From assembly GCA_965215605.1 (NCBI GenBank), contig OZ244070.1, positions 2,968,158-3,032,157 of the forward strand: a stretch of DNA of 64,000 bases, given 5' to 3'. A program made the translations under genes and the position numbers. The notes below the pieces were generated by a model that searched no databases, was not told the origin of the DNA, and saw only the letters and a list, made by a program, of their open reading frames with translations. Shown piece by piece: positions 3,396 to 13,275 of the stretch (positions are counted from its first letter, which is position 1; every line of letters starts with the position of its first letter). This DNA is from an uncultured Candidatus Binatia bacterium (GTDB taxonomy: Bacteria; Desulfobacterota; Binatia; UBA9968; JAJDTQ01).

Positions 3396-4241
3396 ATGGA
3401 GATCAAGACGGTCACGTTGTTGCATCCCGGCAACATGGGCGCCACCATCGGCGCCGCCGTGCAGGGCGCCCGGGTGCTGTGGGTTTCCGCCGGACGGAGC
3501 GAGGGAAGCCGGCAAAGGGCCTCGAAGGCCGGCCTGGCGGATGTGGCGACCCTGGCCGAGGCCGTGGGCGAGAGCGACGCGGTGTTGTCCGTGTGCCCGC
3601 CCCATGCGGCCGAGGATGTGGCGGAGAGCGTGGCCGGAGTGGGCTTTGGCGGGTTGTACGTGGACGCGAACGCCGTTTCGCGCGCCACCGCTCAAAAGGT
3701 GGGTGCGGCCGTCGGCAAGGCCGGGGCGACCTTCGTGGACGGCGCCATCATCGGACCTCCGGTGACCAAGCCGGGAAGGACGCGCCTTTATCTTTCGGGC
3801 GCCGGGGCGGAGGGCGTAGCCAAGCTGTTCTCGGGGAGCATGCTCGATGCCCGTGTCATCGAGGGCGGCCCGGGGGCGGCCTCCGCGCTCAAGATGACCT
3901 ACGCCGCGTGGACCAAGGGCAGCGACGCGCTGATCCTGGCCATCCGCGCGCTGGCGGCCCGGGAAGGGGTGGAGGAGGCGCTGCTCCAGGAATGGGCGGG
4001 GTCCCAGCCCAACCTTCCCGGCAAGAGCGAGCGCGCCGCCGCGGTGGCCGCGCCCAAGGGCTGGCGTTACGTGGGCGAAATGGAGGAGATCGCCGCCAGC
4101 TTCGAGGCCGCCGGCCTCCCCGCAGGCTTCCACAAGGCCGCCGCCGACCTCTACCGCCGGCTGGCCCCGTTCAAGGACCGCGCCGACCCTGGCCCCGAGG
4201 TCAAGGAGGTCCTTGACGCCATCCAGGAGCCATGCTCCTAG
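3396..4241 (+). CDS. NAD(P)-binding oxidoreductase (6-PGDH-like NAD-binding domain plus DUF1932-like C-terminus)
   Basis: N-terminal dinucleotide-binding pattern LLHPGNMGATIGAAV. The C-terminal RYVGEMEEIAASFEAAGLP resembles DUF1932 proteins. An SD (GGAGCGGAGG) lies before the ATG. Confidence 0.6.
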   Translation: MEIKTVTLLHPGNMGATIGAAVQGARVLWVSAGRSEGSRQRASKAGLADVATLAEAVGESDAVLSVCPPHAAEDVAESVAGVGFGGLYVDANAVSRATAQKVGAAVGKAGATFVDGAIIGPPVTKPGRTRLYLSGAGAEGVAKLFSGSMLDARVIEGGPGAASALKMTYAAWTKGSDALILAIRALAAREGVEEALLQEWAGSQPNLPGKSERAAAVAAPKGWRYVGEMEEIAASFEAAGLPAGFHKAAADLYRRLAPFKDRADPGPEVKEVLDAIQEPCS

Positions 4242-5866
4242 TGGTCCTCTTCTTCCACATCGCTGGCCTTGACGCGCCGTGACTTGAGCTTCTCGCCGGT
4301 CTCGAAGTAGCGTCCCTCCACCGCGAGCCTGGCTTCCTCGTCCAACTCGTCGTCCCACTGGCCCAGGGAGTAGCCGTACCATGGCATCTTGGGCTTGAGG
4401 GGCGGCAGCATGAACTCCTCCCACAGCTCCCGGGCGTGCTCCATGTATTCCCGCTTGGGCAGCGACACGGGCGGGAAGGGCTCCTTCTGGATGGCGTTGC
4501 ACAGCATGCCCGATTCGTCTGCCGGCAGGTGGTACGACACCACGTCGGTGCCCTTGTGATCGTCATTGTACAGGAACGGCGGGGCGTGGCCCTTTTCCAT
4601 GCCGCCGATGATCTGCACGTCCTGGTGGGGCTTCATGCGGTAGCACATGGCCCAGAACACCGCCGCCTCGTCCGACGGATCGATGTCCTCGTCCACCGCG
4701 ATGACGATCTTGCCGACGCCGGGATGGAAGGACGACGCGGCGTGGAGCGCGCGCCACACCTCGGCTTCCTTGGGCTTGCGCATCTGCACGATGACGAGCT
4801 TGTAGGTGTTGGTGAGGGGTTCGTGCATCTCCACCCGGATGACGCTGGTGATGCGGCAGTGGTCCCTCAGGTGCACCAGCATGAGCCGGTCGTAGCCGAT
4901 CTTGCGGATCACCGACGATTCGCTCGGGGTGAGCTGGCTGAGCCATGACACGTAGATGGCGTTCTTGCGGTGGGTGATGGCGGTGACGTCCATGAACGGG
5001 TTCAACTGCCGCGGATGCATGTAGCCGTGGGATTCTCCGAACGGCCCCTCGGGTTCCACGAACTCGGTGTTGAGGTGTCCCTCGATGACGATCTCCGATT
5101 CCGCCGGCACCTGCAGGTCCACGGTCTTGCACTGGGCCATGCGGATGGGCTCGCCCACGAAACCGCCGGCGATGGCCATTTCGTCCACGCCGTAGTCCAC
5201 CTTCTGCACCGACACGTAGGAGACCACCGGCGGCGCGCCGATGACCAGCGCCGCCTCCAGCGGCTCGCCGCGCTTCTGGGCGTTCTTCCAGTGCAGGTAG
5301 ATGTCCTGGCCCAGTCCGGACGGGAACACGCCTACCCGGGAGTTCGACTTGATCTGGCCCCGGTAGTTGCCGATGTTCCCGATACCGGTCTCGGGGTCCT
5401 TGGTGATCCAGTGGGAGCATGTGGTGTAGGGGCCGTTGTCGAACCCGGGGGTGGAGATGGGGACCGGGAACTTGTCCAGCCCTTCGTTCTCCACGGCATC
5501 GCCGGTCATCACCACTTCGTGGCACGCCGGGTCGTCCACCACCTTGGGCGTGATGGGATTGGAGAGGGCGTGCTTCCACTTCTTGTCCATCTCCTCGGCG
5601 CTGTTGCAGCCCATGCCCAGGAAGTAGATGGCCTTGCTGCCGGCCAGCGCGCCCACCACCACGGGGAAGTCGAACTTGCGCCCGCGGGAGTCTGTGACGT
5701 TGGAGAAGTACCACGCCTTGCGCTCCTCGTCGGGAATGCCGCCCCGGTACTGCCAGCGCACCAGCGGATGCAGTTCGGTGTCCTTGTTGATGGTCTGGTT
5801 GATGCGGCGCAGGTGCCCCGCCTCTTCGAGCATCCTCAGATGCTCATGTAGATCTGCATAACCCAT
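4238..5866 (-). CDS. UbiD-family (prFMN-dependent) decarboxylase
   Basis: Real start is MGYADLHEHLRMLEEAGHLRRI at ATG 5866, preceded by AGGAGG. UbiD-type body: HPLVRWQY, GPYTTCSHWITKDPETGIGNIGNYRGQ, EGPFGESHGY. The 634-aa track ORF over-extends upstream. Confidence 0.9.
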   Translation of the reverse strand: MGYADLHEHLRMLEEAGHLRRINQTINKDTELHPLVRWQYRGGIPDEERKAWYFSNVTDSRGRKFDFPVVVGALAGSKAIYFLGMGCNSAEEMDKKWKHALSNPITPKVVDDPACHEVVMTGDAVENEGLDKFPVPISTPGFDNGPYTTCSHWITKDPETGIGNIGNYRGQIKSNSRVGVFPSGLGQDIYLHWKNAQKRGEPLEAALVIGAPPVVSYVSVQKVDYGVDEMAIAGGFVGEPIRMAQCKTVDLQVPAESEIVIEGHLNTEFVEPEGPFGESHGYMHPRQLNPFMDVTAITHRKNAIYVSWLSQLTPSESSVIRKIGYDRLMLVHLRDHCRITSVIRVEMHEPLTNTYKLVIVQMRKPKEAEVWRALHAASSFHPGVGKIVIAVDEDIDPSDEAAVFWAMCYRMKPHQDVQIIGGMEKGHAPPFLYNDDHKGTDVVSYHLPADESGMLCNAIQKEPFPPVSLPKREYMEHARELWEEFMLPPLKPKMPWYGYSLGQWDDELDEEARLAVEGRYFETGEKLKSRRVKASDVEEEDH

Positions 5867-6144
5867 GGATTGCCTCCTGTTCAGCTCGATTTCTCGGAAT
5901 GTCGCGGTGAGTTCCCGTAACCCCGTGCGGCGCAGGCCCGGATAGCGGGGCTCCAGGCGATCGGCGGAAAGAAACGGATGGCTCTCGTGCGAAGAAAGAA
6001 AATAGCCGATGGTGTCCTGCCGTGTCAAATTCACCGCGGGGTCGCCTCTCCCGGTTCCCCCAGGCCCGCCGGGACGGGCGATGCTTGACGCGGTTCGCGT
6101 GACTCCTGTAGCCTTGGCCGCAATCCACGGAAGGAGTTGCATGC

Positions 6145-7437: not shown

Positions 7438-7507
7438 AGCGGTGGCGGCGGCGAATGGCGGTTTGGCACAAGATTTCGTATTCAAGACGCCACGAAAGGA
7501 GCCTTCC

Positions 7508-8602
7508 ATGAGCATTGATACGGGCCTGTACCGCCGGACCTTCAGGGGCACAGGGGGGGTCGCCACCGACGAGATTCTGTTCTCATCCGATTCCCATGTG
7601 ATGGAGCCCGCGGACACGTTGGTGAACCGCGTCCCGCAAGCCATGCGCGATGCCGCGCCGCGCTTTCCCGAACTGAAAACAGGGGAGGGGTTCCAGACCC
7701 ATCCCGGAGGGTCGGACCCCAAGGCCCGGCTCAAGGAGATGGCGGTGGACGGGGTCAGCGCCGAGGTGCTGTATCCCACCTACTCCCTGAGCCTGTTCTC
7801 GCAGGAGGATGTCGCGCTCCACGAGGCGTCGTGCCGGGCCTACAACGACTGGCTCATCGAATACTGCCAGGTGGACCTGGACCGGCTGGTGGGCGTGCCG
7901 ATGATCGCCACCTTCAACATCGACCATGCGGTGGCGGAGTTGGAGCGTTGCAAGAAGGCGGGGCTCCGGGGAGCGCTGATATGGCAGGTGCCGCCGACGG
8001 AGTTGTCCTTCGCAACCGACCATTACGAGCGCTTCTGGGCCGCCGCCCAGGAGATGGAGATGCCTGTCAGCGTCCACATCCTCACGGGCTTCGGCTATGT
8101 CAAGACGCGCTACGACCGCAAGGGCCTGGAACGCTACCGGGGCAGCGTCAACCTCAAGCTGGCGGAAATCATCGACAGCCTGATGGACATCATCTTCTCG
8201 GGCGTGCTGGAACGCTACCCGCGCCTGAAGATGGTGCTGGTGGAGAACGAGATCGGCTGGCTGCCCTACGTGCTGGAGCAGTGGGACTACTACTTCGACC
8301 GCCACCGCCCCACGGACCCGCTGACCATCGACAAGCTGCCCACCGAGTACTTCAACCGGCAGGTCTTCGCCACCTTCTTCAACGACGCCGTGGGCGCCCG
8401 CAACCTGGTCTGGTGGGGGCACGACAACTGCATGTGGTCCAACGACTTCCCCCACGCCAACTCCACCTGGCCGCACTCGCGGGACGTGGTGGCGCGGGAC
8501 CTCGGCCACCTGCCGGACGACGTGCGCGCCAAGCTGCTGCGGGACAACGTCGCCCGGCTGTACAATATGCCGGTGCCCGCGGCCATGACCGTGGGGGTGT
8601 AA
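7508..8602 (+). CDS. Amidohydrolase_2 family protein (ACMSD/LigW-type metal-dependent hydrolase or decarboxylase)
   Basis: Start MSIDTG follows AAGGAG. Motifs: SDSHVMEP (HxH-type), MAVDGVSAEVLYPT, AYNDWL, WSNDFPH. Confidence 0.85.
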   Translation: MSIDTGLYRRTFRGTGGVATDEILFSSDSHVMEPADTLVNRVPQAMRDAAPRFPELKTGEGFQTHPGGSDPKARLKEMAVDGVSAEVLYPTYSLSLFSQEDVALHEASCRAYNDWLIEYCQVDLDRLVGVPMIATFNIDHAVAELERCKKAGLRGALIWQVPPTELSFATDHYERFWAAAQEMEMPVSVHILTGFGYVKTRYDRKGLERYRGSVNLKLAEIIDSLMDIIFSGVLERYPRLKMVLVENEIGWLPYVLEQWDYYFDRHRPTDPLTIDKLPTEYFNRQVFATFFNDAVGARNLVWWGHDNCMWSNDFPHANSTWPHSRDVVARDLGHLPDDVRAKLLRDNVARLYNMPVPAAMTVGV

Positions 8603-8691: not shown

Positions 8692-10167
8692 TCAGAGTGT
8701 ATCCGAAGCGGCGTGAGTCTTGCGCAGGGCCAGCGAGAAGCCCGGCTTGCGGATGTAGACTTGGGTGTACTCTTTCTGCTTCGTGAGTTCGTTGATGAGC
8801 CGCACCAGCGGCTGGCTCGCGCTCAGATACTCACGGGGCCGTCCGGCGTTCTGCAACTCCTCCACCGCCTCATCCCCCGCGAACACGCGTAGTATCAGCT
8901 CTTCATCGGAAATGGAGGAACTGCCGAGTTGCGCCCGCACCTCCGGCAGTGTCGGCTCCGGCTGCTGCCAGCCTTCCCAGTCCTTGGCCCGGGGCCGGCC
9001 GAGGATGCGGTCCTTGACGTCGGGGTCCATGAGCTCGGCGCCTTCCCGGCCCCAGATGCCCAGGGCGTACTGGATGGACTGGTCCGAGACCTGCTTGTAG
9101 CGTTCGCCGAGGATGATGTTGAAGGCCGCCTGGGTGCCGACGAACTGGGACAGCGGCGTCACCATGATGGGATAGCCCCACTCGGCGCGTATCCGCGCGG
9201 CCTCCTCCAGCGCCGCCGGCAGCTTGTCCTCCATACCCACCAGGCGGAGCTGGTGCACGAAGTTGGAGATCATGCCGCCGGGCACCTGGTGGGCGTAGAC
9301 GGACTGGTCGAAGGCCGCGGGCGCGCCCATCGGCAGCCGGTCCCGTTTGGCGACGAAGGTGAAGTGTTCCTTTACGGGCTTCAGCACCTCCTCGTCCACC
9401 GGCACCGTGTAACCCAGGGCCCGGAGGTTCTGCGCCATGTTGAAGACCGAAGGCTGGGCCGAGCCGTTGGCCAGAGGCGGCACGCCGGTGTGGATGGTGG
9501 TCATGCCGAGCTTGATGGCCTCGATGTAGTTGAGCGGCGCCAGTCCGTTGTTGCAGTGGGCGTGGAACTCCACCGGCGTGTCGCCGACGTTCTCCAGCAC
9601 GATGGGCACCAGGGTCCGCGTGCGCTCTGGAGTGAGCAGGCCGCCCACGTCCTTGAAGCAGATGCGGTAGGGATTCATGGCCGCGGCCTCCCGGGCCTTC
9701 CGCGCGTAGTATTCGTCGGTGTGTCTGGGCGACTCCGAGTAGATCAGGTTCACGACCGCGTCCACGCCCAGCCTGCCCAGCTCGTCCACGTCGTCCTTGA
9801 ACACGGTGTAGTCGTTCCAGGGATTCGACGTGCGGGTCAGCCGGATGCCGCTGTCCACCACGTGCTGGACCACGAGCCGCGCCACCGCCGTGGGCTTCTT
9901 CTCCAGCCCGCCCTTCACGCCCCCGTGAAGCCGGAGCGGGGTGTTGCGCGCGCGCCGGGCACCCTCCCGCAGCCAGTGCCAAGGGTCCTCCTTGTGCTCG
10001 CGCACGTACTTCTTGATCATGGTGGCGCTGAAGAACTCCATGGACTCGAAGCCCGCCTCGTCCATGCGCTCGATGGCTTCGAGCATGGCCGCGGTCTTCA
10101 TGTTGAAAGCCCAGAGGCTCTGGTTGCCGTCGCGCAGCGTGGTGTCCACGAATCTAACGTCGCTCAT
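8692..10167 (-). CDS. Carboxyltransferase (transcarboxylase 5S / OadA / PycB-type HMGL-like plus PYC_OADA domains), no biotinyl domain; paralog A
   Basis: MSDVRFVDTTLRDGNQSLW, CFKDVGG, EFHAHCNNGLAP. ATG 10167 is preceded by GAGGAG. The 972-aa track ORF is an off-frame read-through of paralog B. Confidence 0.85.
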   Translation of the reverse strand: MSDVRFVDTTLRDGNQSLWAFNMKTAAMLEAIERMDEAGFESMEFFSATMIKKYVREHKEDPWHWLREGARRARNTPLRLHGGVKGGLEKKPTAVARLVVQHVVDSGIRLTRTSNPWNDYTVFKDDVDELGRLGVDAVVNLIYSESPRHTDEYYARKAREAAAMNPYRICFKDVGGLLTPERTRTLVPIVLENVGDTPVEFHAHCNNGLAPLNYIEAIKLGMTTIHTGVPPLANGSAQPSVFNMAQNLRALGYTVPVDEEVLKPVKEHFTFVAKRDRLPMGAPAAFDQSVYAHQVPGGMISNFVHQLRLVGMEDKLPAALEEAARIRAEWGYPIMVTPLSQFVGTQAAFNIILGERYKQVSDQSIQYALGIWGREGAELMDPDVKDRILGRPRAKDWEGWQQPEPTLPEVRAQLGSSSISDEELILRVFAGDEAVEELQNAGRPREYLSASQPLVRLINELTKQKEYTQVYIRKPGFSLALRKTHAASDTL

Positions 10168-10175
10168 GGATCTCC

Positions 10176-11663
10176 TCAGGCGGCGGCCTCGTCCGCCGCG
10201 TCTCCGTCGGCGTTCCGTCCCAGGGTGAGGGAGAAGCCGGGCTTGCGGATGTAGACCTGGGTGTATTCCTGCTGCCGGGTGAGCTCGTTGACGAGCCGCA
10301 CCAGCGGCTGGCTCGCGCTCAGGTACTCCCGGGGCCGGCCGGCGTTCTGCAGCGCCTCCACCGCCTCGTCCCCCGCGTACACCCGCATGATCAGTTCCTC
10401 GTCGGACATGGACGGGCCACCGAGCTGCGCCCGGACCTCCTCGAGCGACGGGTCGGGCTGCTCCCAGTTCTCCCAGGCCCTGGCCCGCGGCCGCCCCAGG
10501 ATGCGGTCCTTCACGTCCGGGTCCATGTACTCGGCGCCCTGCCGGCCCCAGATGCCCAGGGCGTACTGGATGGACTGGTCGGTGACCTGCTTGTAGCGCT
10601 CGCCCATGATGACGTTGATGGCCGCCTGGGTGCCGACGAACTGGGACAGCGGCGTCACCATGATGGGATAGCCCCACTCGGCACGCACACGCGCGGCCTC
10701 CTCCAGCGCCGCCGGCAGCTTGTCCTCCATGCCCACCATGCGGAGCTGGTGCACGAAGTTGGAGATCATGCCGCCGGGCACCTGGTGGGCATAGACGGAC
10801 TGGTCGAAGGCCGCGGGCGCGCCCATGGGCAGCCCGTCCCTTTTGGCCACGAAGGTGAAATGCTCCCGCACCGGCTTGAGCGCTTCCTCGTCCACCTCTA
10901 CCGTGTGGCCCATGGCGCGCACGTTCCTGAGCATGTTGAAGATCGAGGGCTGGGCCGAACCGTTGGCCAGGGGCGGCACGCTGGTGTGGATGGTGGTCAT
11001 GCCGAGCTTGATGGCTTCCAGGTAGTTGAGCGGCGCCAGCCCGTTGTTGCAGTGGGCGTGGAACTCCACCGGGATGTCGCCGATGTTTTCCAGCACGATG
11101 GGCACCAGCGTGCGGGTGCGTTCCGGAGTCAGCATTCCGCCCACGTCCTTGAAGCAGATGCGGTAGGGCTTCAGGGCGGCGGCTTCCCGGGCCTTCTGGG
11201 CGTAGTACTCGTCGGTGTGCCGCGGCGATACCGAGTAGATGATGTTCGCCACGGCATCCATGCCGAGCTCGCGCAGGTCGTCCACCTCCTGCTTGAACAC
11301 CGAGTAGTCGTTCCACGGGTTGGAGTTGCGCGTCAGACGGATGCCGTTGTCCACCAGGTGACTGACCACCAGCTTGGCCACCGACGTGGGCTTCTTCTCC
11401 AGCCCGCCCCGGATGCTGCCGTGCATCCGCAGCGGGGTGTTGCGGGCGCGCCGTGTGCCTTCCCGGATCCAGCGCCACGGGTTCTCCTTGTGCTCGCGCA
11501 CGTACTTCTTGATCATGGTGGCGCTGAAGAACTCCATGGACTCGAAGCCCGCCCGGTCCATGCCCTCGATGGCCTCCAGCATGGCCCCGGTCCTCATGTT
11601 GTAGGCCCACAGGCTCTGGTTGCCGTCCCGCAGCGTGGTGTCCACGAAAGTGACGTCGCTCAT
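10176..11663 (-). CDS. Carboxyltransferase (5S/OadA-type), paralog B
   Basis: MSDVTFVDTTLRDGNQSLW, CFKDVGG, EFHAHCNNGLAP. Its stop lies 8 nt upstream of the paralog A start. Confidence 0.85.
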   Translation of the reverse strand: MSDVTFVDTTLRDGNQSLWAYNMRTGAMLEAIEGMDRAGFESMEFFSATMIKKYVREHKENPWRWIREGTRRARNTPLRMHGSIRGGLEKKPTSVAKLVVSHLVDNGIRLTRNSNPWNDYSVFKQEVDDLRELGMDAVANIIYSVSPRHTDEYYAQKAREAAALKPYRICFKDVGGMLTPERTRTLVPIVLENIGDIPVEFHAHCNNGLAPLNYLEAIKLGMTTIHTSVPPLANGSAQPSIFNMLRNVRAMGHTVEVDEEALKPVREHFTFVAKRDGLPMGAPAAFDQSVYAHQVPGGMISNFVHQLRMVGMEDKLPAALEEAARVRAEWGYPIMVTPLSQFVGTQAAINVIMGERYKQVTDQSIQYALGIWGRQGAEYMDPDVKDRILGRPRARAWENWEQPDPSLEEVRAQLGGPSMSDEELIMRVYAGDEAVEALQNAGRPREYLSASQPLVRLVNELTRQQEYTQVYIRKPGFSLTLGRNADGDAADEAAA

Positions 11664-11673
11664 GCGTTCGTCC

Positions 11674-13161
11674 TCAGACCGCGGCCCCGCCGGCCGTGTC
11701 TCCGTTGGCGCTCCGTCCCAGGGTGAGGGAGAACCCCGGCTTGCGGATGTACACCTGGGTGTATTCCTTCTGTTTGGTCAGCTCGTTGATGAGCCGCACC
11801 AGCGGCTGCCGCGCGCTCAGGTATTCCCGCGGCCGGCCGGACTCCATCATGGTCTTGACCTCGTCCACGCCGGCGTAGACCCGCAGTACCAGCTCCTCGT
11901 CCGAGATCGAGGGTCCGCCCAACTGGGACCGGAGCTCCGCCAGCGACGGCTCGGGCTGCTCCCATTCGGTCCACGCCTTGGCCCGGGGCCGGCCCAGGAT
12001 CTTGTCCTTGACGTCGGGGTCCATGAGTTCGGCGCCCTCGCGGCCCCAGATGCCCAGGGCGTACTGGATGGACTGGTCCGCCACCTCCTTGTAGCGCTCT
12101 CCGAGGATGACGTTGAAGGCCGCTTGGGTGCCCACGAACTGGGACAGGGGCGTCACCATGATGGGGTAGCCCCACTCGGCGCGCACCCGGGCGGCCTCCT
12201 CCAGGGCCGCCGGCAGCTTGTCCTCCATGCCCACGAGCTTGAGCTGGTGCACGAAGTTGGAGATCATGCCGCCGGGCACCTGGTGCAGGTACTGCCCGTG
12301 GTTGTATTCCACGGGCTTGCCGATGGGGAGCCCGTCGCGCTTGGCCACGTAGGTGAAGTGCTCCTCCACCGGCCGCAGCGCCTCCTCGTTCACCAGTGGC
12401 GTATGGCCCGTGGCGCGGATGTTCCGCACCATGTTGAAGATGGAGGGCTGCGCCGACGCGTTGGCCAGCGGCGGCACGCTGGTGTGGATGGTGGTCATGC
12501 CGAGTTCGATGGCCTCCAGGTAGTTGAGAGGCGCCAGGCCGTTGTTGCAGTGGGCGTGGAACTCCACCGGGGTGTCGCCGATGTTCTCAAGCACCAGCGG
12601 CACCAGGGAGCGGGTGCGCTCGGGGGTGAGCAGCCCGCCCACGTCCTTGAAGCAGATGCGGTAGGGCTTGATGGCCGCGGCTTCCCGCGCCTTCTGGGCA
12701 TAGTACTCGTCGGTGTGACGCGGCGACACCGAGTAGATCAGGTTCGCCACCGTCTCCATCCCCAGCTCGCGCAACCCCTTCACCTCTTCGCCGAAGACCT
12801 CGTAGTCGTTCCAGGAGTTGGAGGTGCGCGTGAGCGTGATGCCGCTGTCCACCACCTTCTGGATGATGAGCTTCAGGATCGACGCCGGCTTCTTCTCAAG
12901 CCCTCCCTTGAGTCCGCCGTGGAGCCGCAGCTCGGTCTTGCGGAGCCGCTTGGTGCCCTCCCGCAGCCACTCCCAGGGGTTCTCCTTGTGCTCCCGGACG
13001 TACTTCTTGAACATGTTGGTAACGAAGAACTCCATGGACTCGAAGCCCGCCTGGTCCATCTGCTCGGCGGTCTCCACCATGGCCGCCGTCTTCATGTTGA
13101 GCGCCCAAAGGCTCTGGTTGCCGTCCCGGAGGGTCGTATCGATGAATCGGATCTCGCTCAT
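11674..13161 (-). CDS. Carboxyltransferase (5S/OadA-type), paralog C
   Basis: MSEIRFIDTTLRDGNQSLW at ATG 13161. It carries the same catalytic motifs. Its stop lies 10 nt upstream of the paralog B start. Confidence 0.85.
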   Translation of the reverse strand: MSEIRFIDTTLRDGNQSLWALNMKTAAMVETAEQMDQAGFESMEFFVTNMFKKYVREHKENPWEWLREGTKRLRKTELRLHGGLKGGLEKKPASILKLIIQKVVDSGITLTRTSNSWNDYEVFGEEVKGLRELGMETVANLIYSVSPRHTDEYYAQKAREAAAIKPYRICFKDVGGLLTPERTRSLVPLVLENIGDTPVEFHAHCNNGLAPLNYLEAIELGMTTIHTSVPPLANASAQPSIFNMVRNIRATGHTPLVNEEALRPVEEHFTYVAKRDGLPIGKPVEYNHGQYLHQVPGGMISNFVHQLKLVGMEDKLPAALEEAARVRAEWGYPIMVTPLSQFVGTQAAFNVILGERYKEVADQSIQYALGIWGREGAELMDPDVKDKILGRPRAKAWTEWEQPEPSLAELRSQLGGPSISDEELVLRVYAGVDEVKTMMESGRPREYLSARQPLVRLINELTKQKEYTQVYIRKPGFSLTLGRSANGDTAGGAAV

Positions 13162-13275
13162 GGGGTCTCCCGAATGAAAACTGGTGCGGTGTTCCATATT
13201 GGCCGGTGTTGTTGCATACCGGCCAGTGTCAACTGCTCATAGTGGCGTGAATGCGGAAACGGGTCAAGGCGGCCC

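Follow-up and report, generated by a model that had tools for sequence, protein, structure and literature searches.

Why does a bacterium keep three closely similar carboxyltransferase genes one behind the other, none of them encoding a biotin-carrying domain, and do their products work with biotin at all? The question is raised by a window of 64 kb (C1:2968158-3032157) in the genome of an uncultured Binatia bacterium (4.06 Mb, 66% GC), where three neighbouring genes on the minus strand, designated here g1, g2 and g3, encode carboxyltransferase (CT) paralogues. The answer given the best chance, with a probability of roughly 0.65, is that the three serve as CT subunits of the biotin-dependent kind whose substrate pockets have diverged, and that they draw on a shared and remote pair of biotin carboxylase (BC) and biotin carboxyl carrier protein (BCCP).

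The original prediction, made from the DNA alone, had described paralogues of 491, 495 and 495 aa which keep the catalytic hallmarks of the family, lack a biotinyl domain and share a conserved C-terminal segment, and all of this was borne out. The list of open reading frames (ORFs) agrees with the three genes, whose proteins are 78% (g1-g2), 77% (g1-g3) and 84% (g2-g3) identical; the motifs DTTLRDGNQS, CFKDVGG and EFHAHCNNG and the tail segment EYTQVYIRKPGFSL are present in each, with every catalytic residue intact in the motif alignment; and the Pfam search gave HMGL-like and PYC_OADA domains in all three and a Biotin_lipoyl domain in none.

The nearest curated models for the triplet in NCBIfam are PycB and OadA, and the solved relatives found by sequence are the two-subunit pyruvate carboxylase (5ks8), OadA (2nx9) and the transcarboxylase 5S subunit (1rqb). 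An AlphaFold2 (AF2) model of g2 (pLDDT 79) shows the barrel and the funnel domain, as expected, and a C-terminus of low confidence in which a helix (453-463) and a hairpin (469-472 and 479-482) are predicted, and Foldseek with this model gave 5ks8, 2nx9 and 1rqh as the best matches. With PycB, OadA and 5S the triplet shares the TIM-barrel plus PYC_OADA fold (TM ~0.75), the metal ligands, the carbamylated Lys, the substrate Arg residues and the Ser/Thr proton shuttle; the metal ligands, the Arg residues and a Ser at the position of the proton-shuttle Thr are invariant in g1-g3 and in 60 homologues. However, the identity to these enzymes is 26-28%, and the scores lie under all curated family cut-offs (312-323 against 402 for NF006761 and 270-302 against 718-756 for the equivalog models, one of them giving 288-302 against 734). 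Moreover, PycB and OadA have a BCCP domain, unlike g1-g3, the triplet has other residues in place of the pocket motifs GGATFD and LLRGQN-VGY, and its C-terminal tail is distinct. No 12S/1.3S or OadB/OadG partner is found near the triplet, a Na+-decarboxylase cluster and a canonical CT being located elsewhere in the genome. Membership among the canonical pyruvate carboxylases, oxaloacetate decarboxylases or 5S subunits was rejected on the curated cut-offs, so that the earlier labels "5S/OadA-type" and "CfiA-type" are too loose; the fold and the catalytic residues are of the PycB/5S type. The biotin-independent DRE-TIM lyases (HMG-CoA lyase, IPMS and 4-hydroxy-2-oxovalerate aldolase) are matched at only 20-55 bits against cut-offs of 229-600, and the C-terminal domain is PYC_OADA, not of the LeuA or DmpG type.

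The triplet belongs to a larger family. The genome holds 11 PYC_OADA genes, namely one canonical CT and ten members of a divergent family which are 49-84% identical to each other, 29-33% identical to the canonical CT and spread over 8 loci. All ten carry the same C-terminal tail and none has a BCCP domain. In the tree the divergent family forms a distinct long-branch clade. Its database homologues number more than 6000, mostly from Binatia-type metagenome-assembled genomes (MAGs; uncultured, soil and groundwater), and the family is confined to the order, so that a phylum-wide profile, in which only 7 candidates per genome were scored, told little. Exact-sequence look-ups of one protein of the window and two proteins of related loci gave no match. 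The substrate motif varies across the paralogues as RDG(H/N/P/Q)(Q/S/L/M)S, and their neighbourhoods are catabolic and varied, with genes of the MmgE/PrpD, FAD oxidoreductase, CN_hydrolase, bicupin, M20 and Amidohydro_2 families. At C1:1604360-1607218, one paralogue with the motif RDGHLS starts 16 nt after a same-strand gene of the MmgE/PrpD family, possibly a separate pathway pairing.

As regards the missing partner, every BC or BCCP match in the genome falls outside the 64-kb window, as had been claimed, and the possibility raised at the same time that a BC/BCCP pair lies just beyond its borders did not hold, for none is close by. The genome has two accB-accC pairs, a housekeeping-like one at 2.37 Mb and AccB2/BC2 at C1:1978135-1980125, and the latter, the sole extra pair, is ~1.0 Mb away from the triplet. 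The link between this pair and the CT family surfaced in a search from the BC/BCCP side, in which genomes of sister families were found to carry accB2, BC2, a CT of the family and an Amidohydro_2 gene in a row. The accB-accC-CT genes are co-oriented and tightly spaced in two such loci (L126 and L127), the gaps in the second, from accB2 to the amidohydrolase gene, being 7, 23 and 30 nt. The same order of accB, accC and CT recurs in G040:C165, L131, L134, L135 (a Chloroflexota MAG) and L136, and on a plasmid of Sulfitobacter faviae, whose CT is 55% identical to g2 and has the same KDVGG and HCNNG motifs. Altogether at least 8 other genomes or plasmids encode a family member within an accB-accC-CT operon, and in four of them an amidohydrolase gene of ~285 aa follows directly. 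Furthermore, the BC-adjacent CT of the relatives is 73% identical to an unlinked paralogue of the present genome (C1:3063725-3065203), and the amidohydrolase beside it has a counterpart of 75% identity, encoded 4 kb from the same paralogue; because both the unlinked paralogue and the nearby amidohydrolase match operon genes in this way, this genus must have split an ancestral operon. In addition, the distribution of the genes agrees with a common partner: AccB2 is single-copy in 36 of the 41 relatives, with a CT copy number of 5-12 within the genus and 0-10 in sister families, the BC count is one in 4 genomes without the family and two in 6 genomes with it, and among 12 carriers of the family that are more distant, 8 encode an enzyme of the BC2 type. 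The neighbourhood of accB2-BC2 itself (C1:1975075-1980125) contains two Amidohydro_2 genes and a dienelactone-hydrolase-like gene and is conserved across the genus (L111-L125).

Enzymes built in this manner are known from the degradation of aryl ketones. HpeCBA of Rhodococcus rhodochrous GD02 was purified as a biotinylated three-subunit enzyme which uses ATP and bicarbonate to carboxylate 4-phospho-acetophenones (PMC9618137), AcvCDE of Sphingobium sp. SYK-6 consists of a BCCP, a BC and a PycB-like CT, AcvE (bioRxiv 10.1101/2022.04.28.489975), and Novosphingobium uses marK-acvCDEF (PMC12624787). The amidohydrolase superfamily includes CouO (PMC4737184), and HpeF is a homologue of CouO. The papers conflict on which of HpeA and HpeB, and which of XccA and XccC, is the transferase and which the BC (PMC9618137 versus bioRxiv 10.1101/2022.04.28.489975 and PMC12624787); the reported masses of HpeA (57.4 kDa) and HpeB (49.3 kDa) fit HpeA as the transferase of ~500 aa. 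When g2 was searched against plasmids by tblastn, full-length homologues (35-40% identity over residues 1-484, tail included) were obtained from clusters of kinase, BCCP, BC, CT, phosphatase, CoA ligase and amidohydrolase genes in Rhodococcus pyridinivorans, Sphingobium yanoikuyae, Pseudomonas putida and Rhizobium leguminosarum, whose layouts match the published marK-acvCDEF and hpe clusters (PMC12624787, PMC9618137, bioRxiv 10.1101/2022.04.28.489975). The comparison here is with these Acv- and Hpe-like clusters on plasmids and not with AcvE and HpeCBA as published.

The Acv-, Hpe- and Xcc-type enzymes (the last from Aromatoleum aromaticum EbN1), which are carboxylases of the hydroxyphenylethanones acetovanillone and 4-hydroxyacetophenone, resemble the present system in that a PycB-like CT has no fused BCCP and the BCCP and BC come from separate accB-accC-like genes. 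The Acv- and Hpe-like CTs share with the triplet the helix-hairpin tail, the RDGNQS motif and the xNN sequence after the His pair, and in place of Ala610 of pyruvate carboxylase they have Ser or Thr. Moreover, a homologous amidohydrolase of ~285 aa follows the CT in the ancestral-type operons of the Binatia family and is 44% identical to that of the Acv-like clusters; the latter is, to judge from its context, probably a beta-ketoacyl-CoA hydrolase of the HpeF/CouO type. In the tree the Binatia family is a separate clade (100/99) and sister to the Acv-like CTs (98/93), with the Hpe-like CT next; it lies outside their clade, so that no orthology with the Acv or Hpe CTs was found. Within the family the BC-adjacent genes form a basal grade, and the triplet sits in a derived clade, at the base of which is a pair with the BC-linked Sulfitobacter gene in it. 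The Binatia family differs from Acv and Hpe in several respects: its genes are not accompanied by an aryl kinase or a HAD/NagD phosphatase, none of the kinases (AcvAB, HpeHI, MarK) or phosphatases (AcvF, HpeD) having been found in the window or among the recurrent neighbours of 73 loci; the CT genes of this genus are unlinked from accB-accC and amount to 5-12 per genome against a single BC-BCCP pair; and the substrate need not be a phospho-aryl ketone. In the Hpe-like CT of the R. pyridinivorans plasmid pA (L143:6950-8449), the position of the carbamylated Lys reads ELEDAAG, and Glu may be the metal ligand instead.

According to the preferred explanation, BC2 would carboxylate the biotin on AccB2 with ATP and bicarbonate, and the carboxy-biotin would reach the metal site of the CT (Asp13, carbamylated Lys172, His202 and His204), where the enolate of a ketone or of a 2-oxo compound would receive CO2. 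The helix-hairpin tail (residues ~450-485) would dock the CT onto the BC/BCCP module, and ten CTs, g1-g3 included, would share this single pair. The same helix plus beta-hairpin hydrophobic pattern as in the tail is found in the N-termini of AccB2 and of the HpeC- and AcvC-like carriers, the N-terminal segment of an E. coli-type AccB being the BC-docking part of the BCCP; this resemblance can serve as a lead only. In its widest form, the explanation would make one AccB2/BC2 the hub for up to a dozen scattered and interchangeable CTs, each docking by its tail and tuned to its own ketone or 2-oxo substrate, with the triplet as the newest addition and possibly forming mixed dimers; this wider form is put forward tentatively, at somewhat less than an even chance.

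Several points weigh against a shared BC-BCCP pair. In this genome the surroundings of every CT paralogue are free of BC and BCCP genes out to 30 kb, and so are those of 80 related CT loci out to 8 kb. Two relatives have CTs of the family without a dedicated BC/BCCP pair, one with 7 of them, no AccB2-like gene and a housekeeping-type BC only (G048), and one with 3 members (G043), although both genomes may be incomplete. The residues which position biotin in pyruvate carboxylase are altered, the D of GGATFD being changed to K, the aromatic residue of the Tyr628 loop to Leu, and the Ala610 position to Asn or Thr. The tail resembles the AccB N-terminus at a statistically weak level (hhalign, P = 0.033 over 22 columns), and an HMM of the tail run over the genome matched the ten paralogues only and did not retrieve AccB. 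We know of no biochemical precedent for ten CTs working on one BC-BCCP pair. As to the pocket, similar changes are also present in the Acv- and Hpe-like CTs.

Some of these points speak directly for the best surviving rival, namely that the triplet, or perhaps the whole derived subfamily II, is independent of biotin and consists of metal-dependent enzymes that stand alone and act on beta-keto or 2-oxo acids as decarboxylases, lyases or aldolases. They would need only the DRE-TIM barrel and would work in catabolic routes with neighbouring amidohydrolase, M20 and UbiD-type genes. The absence of BC/BCCP genes around all 8 paralogue loci, the two genomes without a dedicated pair, the diverse catabolic neighbourhoods and the variable substrate motif would all suit such enzymes, and isolated CT domains of pyruvate carboxylase and 5S slowly decarboxylate oxaloacetate. 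Nevertheless, this rival is considered unlikely: the full PYC_OADA funnel domain and the Ser of the proton shuttle are kept without exception, the tail common to the complex-forming Acv- and Hpe-like CTs is retained in all ten paralogues, the motif variants of the triplet are found in CTs of accB-accC operons (Sulfitobacter and the Acv-like clusters), and the family co-occurs with BC2/AccB2.

If the triplet consists of biotin-dependent CTs, it remains to explain why there are three. The nucleotide identity among them is 80-85% (15-20% of positions differ), and at least 9 other Binatia genomes carry the triplet as well. An assembly duplication was excluded because the copies have diverged in their DNA and recur in those genomes as separate orthologue clades, and the disablement of any copy was rejected on the intact catalytic residues and on pairwise dN/dS ratios of 0.23-0.34 (dS 0.42-0.56); the suspicion that one or two active sites might be disabled on careful alignment proved unfounded. 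The maximum-likelihood tree gives a separate orthologue clade for each of g1, g2 and g3, with 10-12 genomes per clade (12 for g1 and 10 for g3), and because the clades are separate, two duplications are placed in the ancestor of this Binatia genus, the copies apparently having been kept since then without concerted evolution. The positions of the genes and of the surrounding features are given in Table 1; the spacers had been predicted correctly in length and position.

Table 1. Features of the CT triplet and its immediate surroundings (positions of the window).
Feature	Position	Strand	Description
g1, first CT paralogue	11674..13161	minus	495 aa; HMGL-like + PYC_OADA + C-terminal helix-hairpin tail; no BCCP domain
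g2, second CT paralogue	10176..11663	minus	495 aa
g3, third CT paralogue	8692..10167	minus	491 aa
g1-g2 spacer	11664..11673	minus	10 nt, GGACGAACGC; after TGA stop; GAGGA Shine-Dalgarno-like motif
g2-g3 spacer	10168..10175	minus	8 nt, GGAGATCC; after TGA stop; GGAG Shine-Dalgarno-like motif
Region upstream of g1	13162..13275		intergenic, common to divergent hydrolase-methyltransferase fusion gene; presumed promoter region
Amidohydro_2 gene, convergent context gene	7442..8602	plus	386 aa; best solved relatives PtmU3 and DitZ

The start of g1 is taken at MSEIRF, which is common to the orthologues, within a longer ORF extending to 13197, and GGGAG stands 6-7 nt ahead of its ATG. A scan for the sigma-70 consensus upstream of g1 gave no match. 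The three genes would be co-expressed from one transcript. In other genomes the gene order is g1-g2-g3 or g1-g3-g2, and the spacing between the genes runs from 7 nt to 237 nt, or there is an insert of ~1.6 kb. Three loci (L007-L009) have the order g1-g3-g2, a local rearrangement inside the array, and two (L007 and L011) have the ~1.6 kb insert between two of the three CT genes. Two relatives (L006 and L010) have two copies only, and two others (L014 and L015) only the g1-type copy.

The three copies are told apart by 32 clade-fixed differences, of which 23 are g1-specific. Positions 21, 48/49 and 83/85 are among them and, as mapped only by alignment to the canonical enzymes, correspond to the pocket for substrate and biotin in pyruvate carboxylase and 5S. 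The differences favour a diverged specificity of the three copies. Because these positions align with the pocket, g1-g3 most likely take different substrates, mixed CT dimers being the alternative. Among the three readings which had been offered at first, substrate-range expansion fits best on account of the fixed differences, and a lyase or decarboxylase role independent of biotin is disfavoured by the accB-accC-CT operons, the second BC-BCCP pair and the kinship with Acv and Hpe.

The remaining one of those readings, that the three copies are an obligate hetero-oligomeric CT (a mixed dimer or hexamer) for a single substrate and that the triplication is structural, is rated as improbable. The short spacers with their Shine-Dalgarno motifs suggest that translation is coupled and gives about equal amounts of the three, the other Binatia genomes counted above have kept the three copies together, and solved structures show CT domains of this fold as dimers. 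Against these points, order and spacing vary between genomes, some relatives manage with two copies or with the g1 type only, the active sites are complete in all three, and, by alignment, the fixed differences fall at pocket-aligned positions and form no obvious interface patch. Finally, that g1-g3 are ordinary duplicated PycB, OadA or 5S subunits of central metabolism, or an assembly duplication, is hardly credible in spite of the nearest curated models and of the JGI name "oxaloacetate decarboxylase alpha subunit" for relatives, since the scores stay far under the cut-offs, the genome has a separate canonical CT and a Na+-decarboxylase cluster with its own 71-aa BCCP, the family is a long-branch clade of its own, and three diverged orthologue groups are conserved elsewhere.

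The Na+-translocating decarboxylase-type cluster just mentioned (C1:1761082-1764320) encodes, besides its BCCP with the motif EAMKME, a membrane subunit of 380 aa and an acyl-CoA-type carboxyltransferase of 542 aa, and probably partners the canonical PYC_OADA protein (C1:476844-478271), which itself has no BCCP domain.

Among the neighbouring genes, Amidohydro_2 occurs near 5 of the 8 paralogue loci. However, the genome holds ~100 such genes (for example at C1:164559-166807, 1975078-1977298 and 3942205-3947645), so the adjacency was dropped as a general functional clue and only the operon type of ~285 aa was retained. The Amidohydro_2 protein of the window has its closest relatives in PtmU3 (6omp, E = 5e-44) and DitZ and resembles the classical decarboxylases less, and ~100 genes in 4.06 Mb is a very large expansion of the PtmU3-like group. 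The other recurrent neighbours (His_Phos_1, UPF0047, tRNA methyltransferase, MFS and NMT1) were set aside as uninformative, being on the opposite strand and in a context which looks like housekeeping. A UbiD-family gene of the window (4238-6142) encodes 634 aa with an N-terminal extension of ~90 aa; its orthologue at another locus (L001) has 542 aa, and its start may be over-extended. In annotation, PGAP labels the transferases of ~490 aa as "biotin carboxyl carrier protein" or "hypothetical protein" (L144 and L148) despite the lack of a biotinyl domain, and the names given to the family by PGAP and by JGI ("oxaloacetate decarboxylase alpha") are misleading.

To our knowledge, biochemical proof of a PycB-type transferase which works with a free-standing BC and BCCP exists only since 2022, and for lignin-derived aryl ketones. 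The triplet belongs to an uncharacterised sister branch of this recently described class of carboxylases, in which the transferase has been multiplied to 5-12 per genome and the ATP-using module stays single. If the model of a shared module is true, the spending of ATP for the activation of many unreactive carbonyl compounds would be unusually modular in these bacteria, and the family would offer new carboxylases for biocatalysis and lignin upgrading. If, moreover, one BC-BCCP hub does serve the many scattered transferases, the principle of the aryl-ketone carboxylases would be widened to a general carboxylative strategy of catabolism in Binatia.

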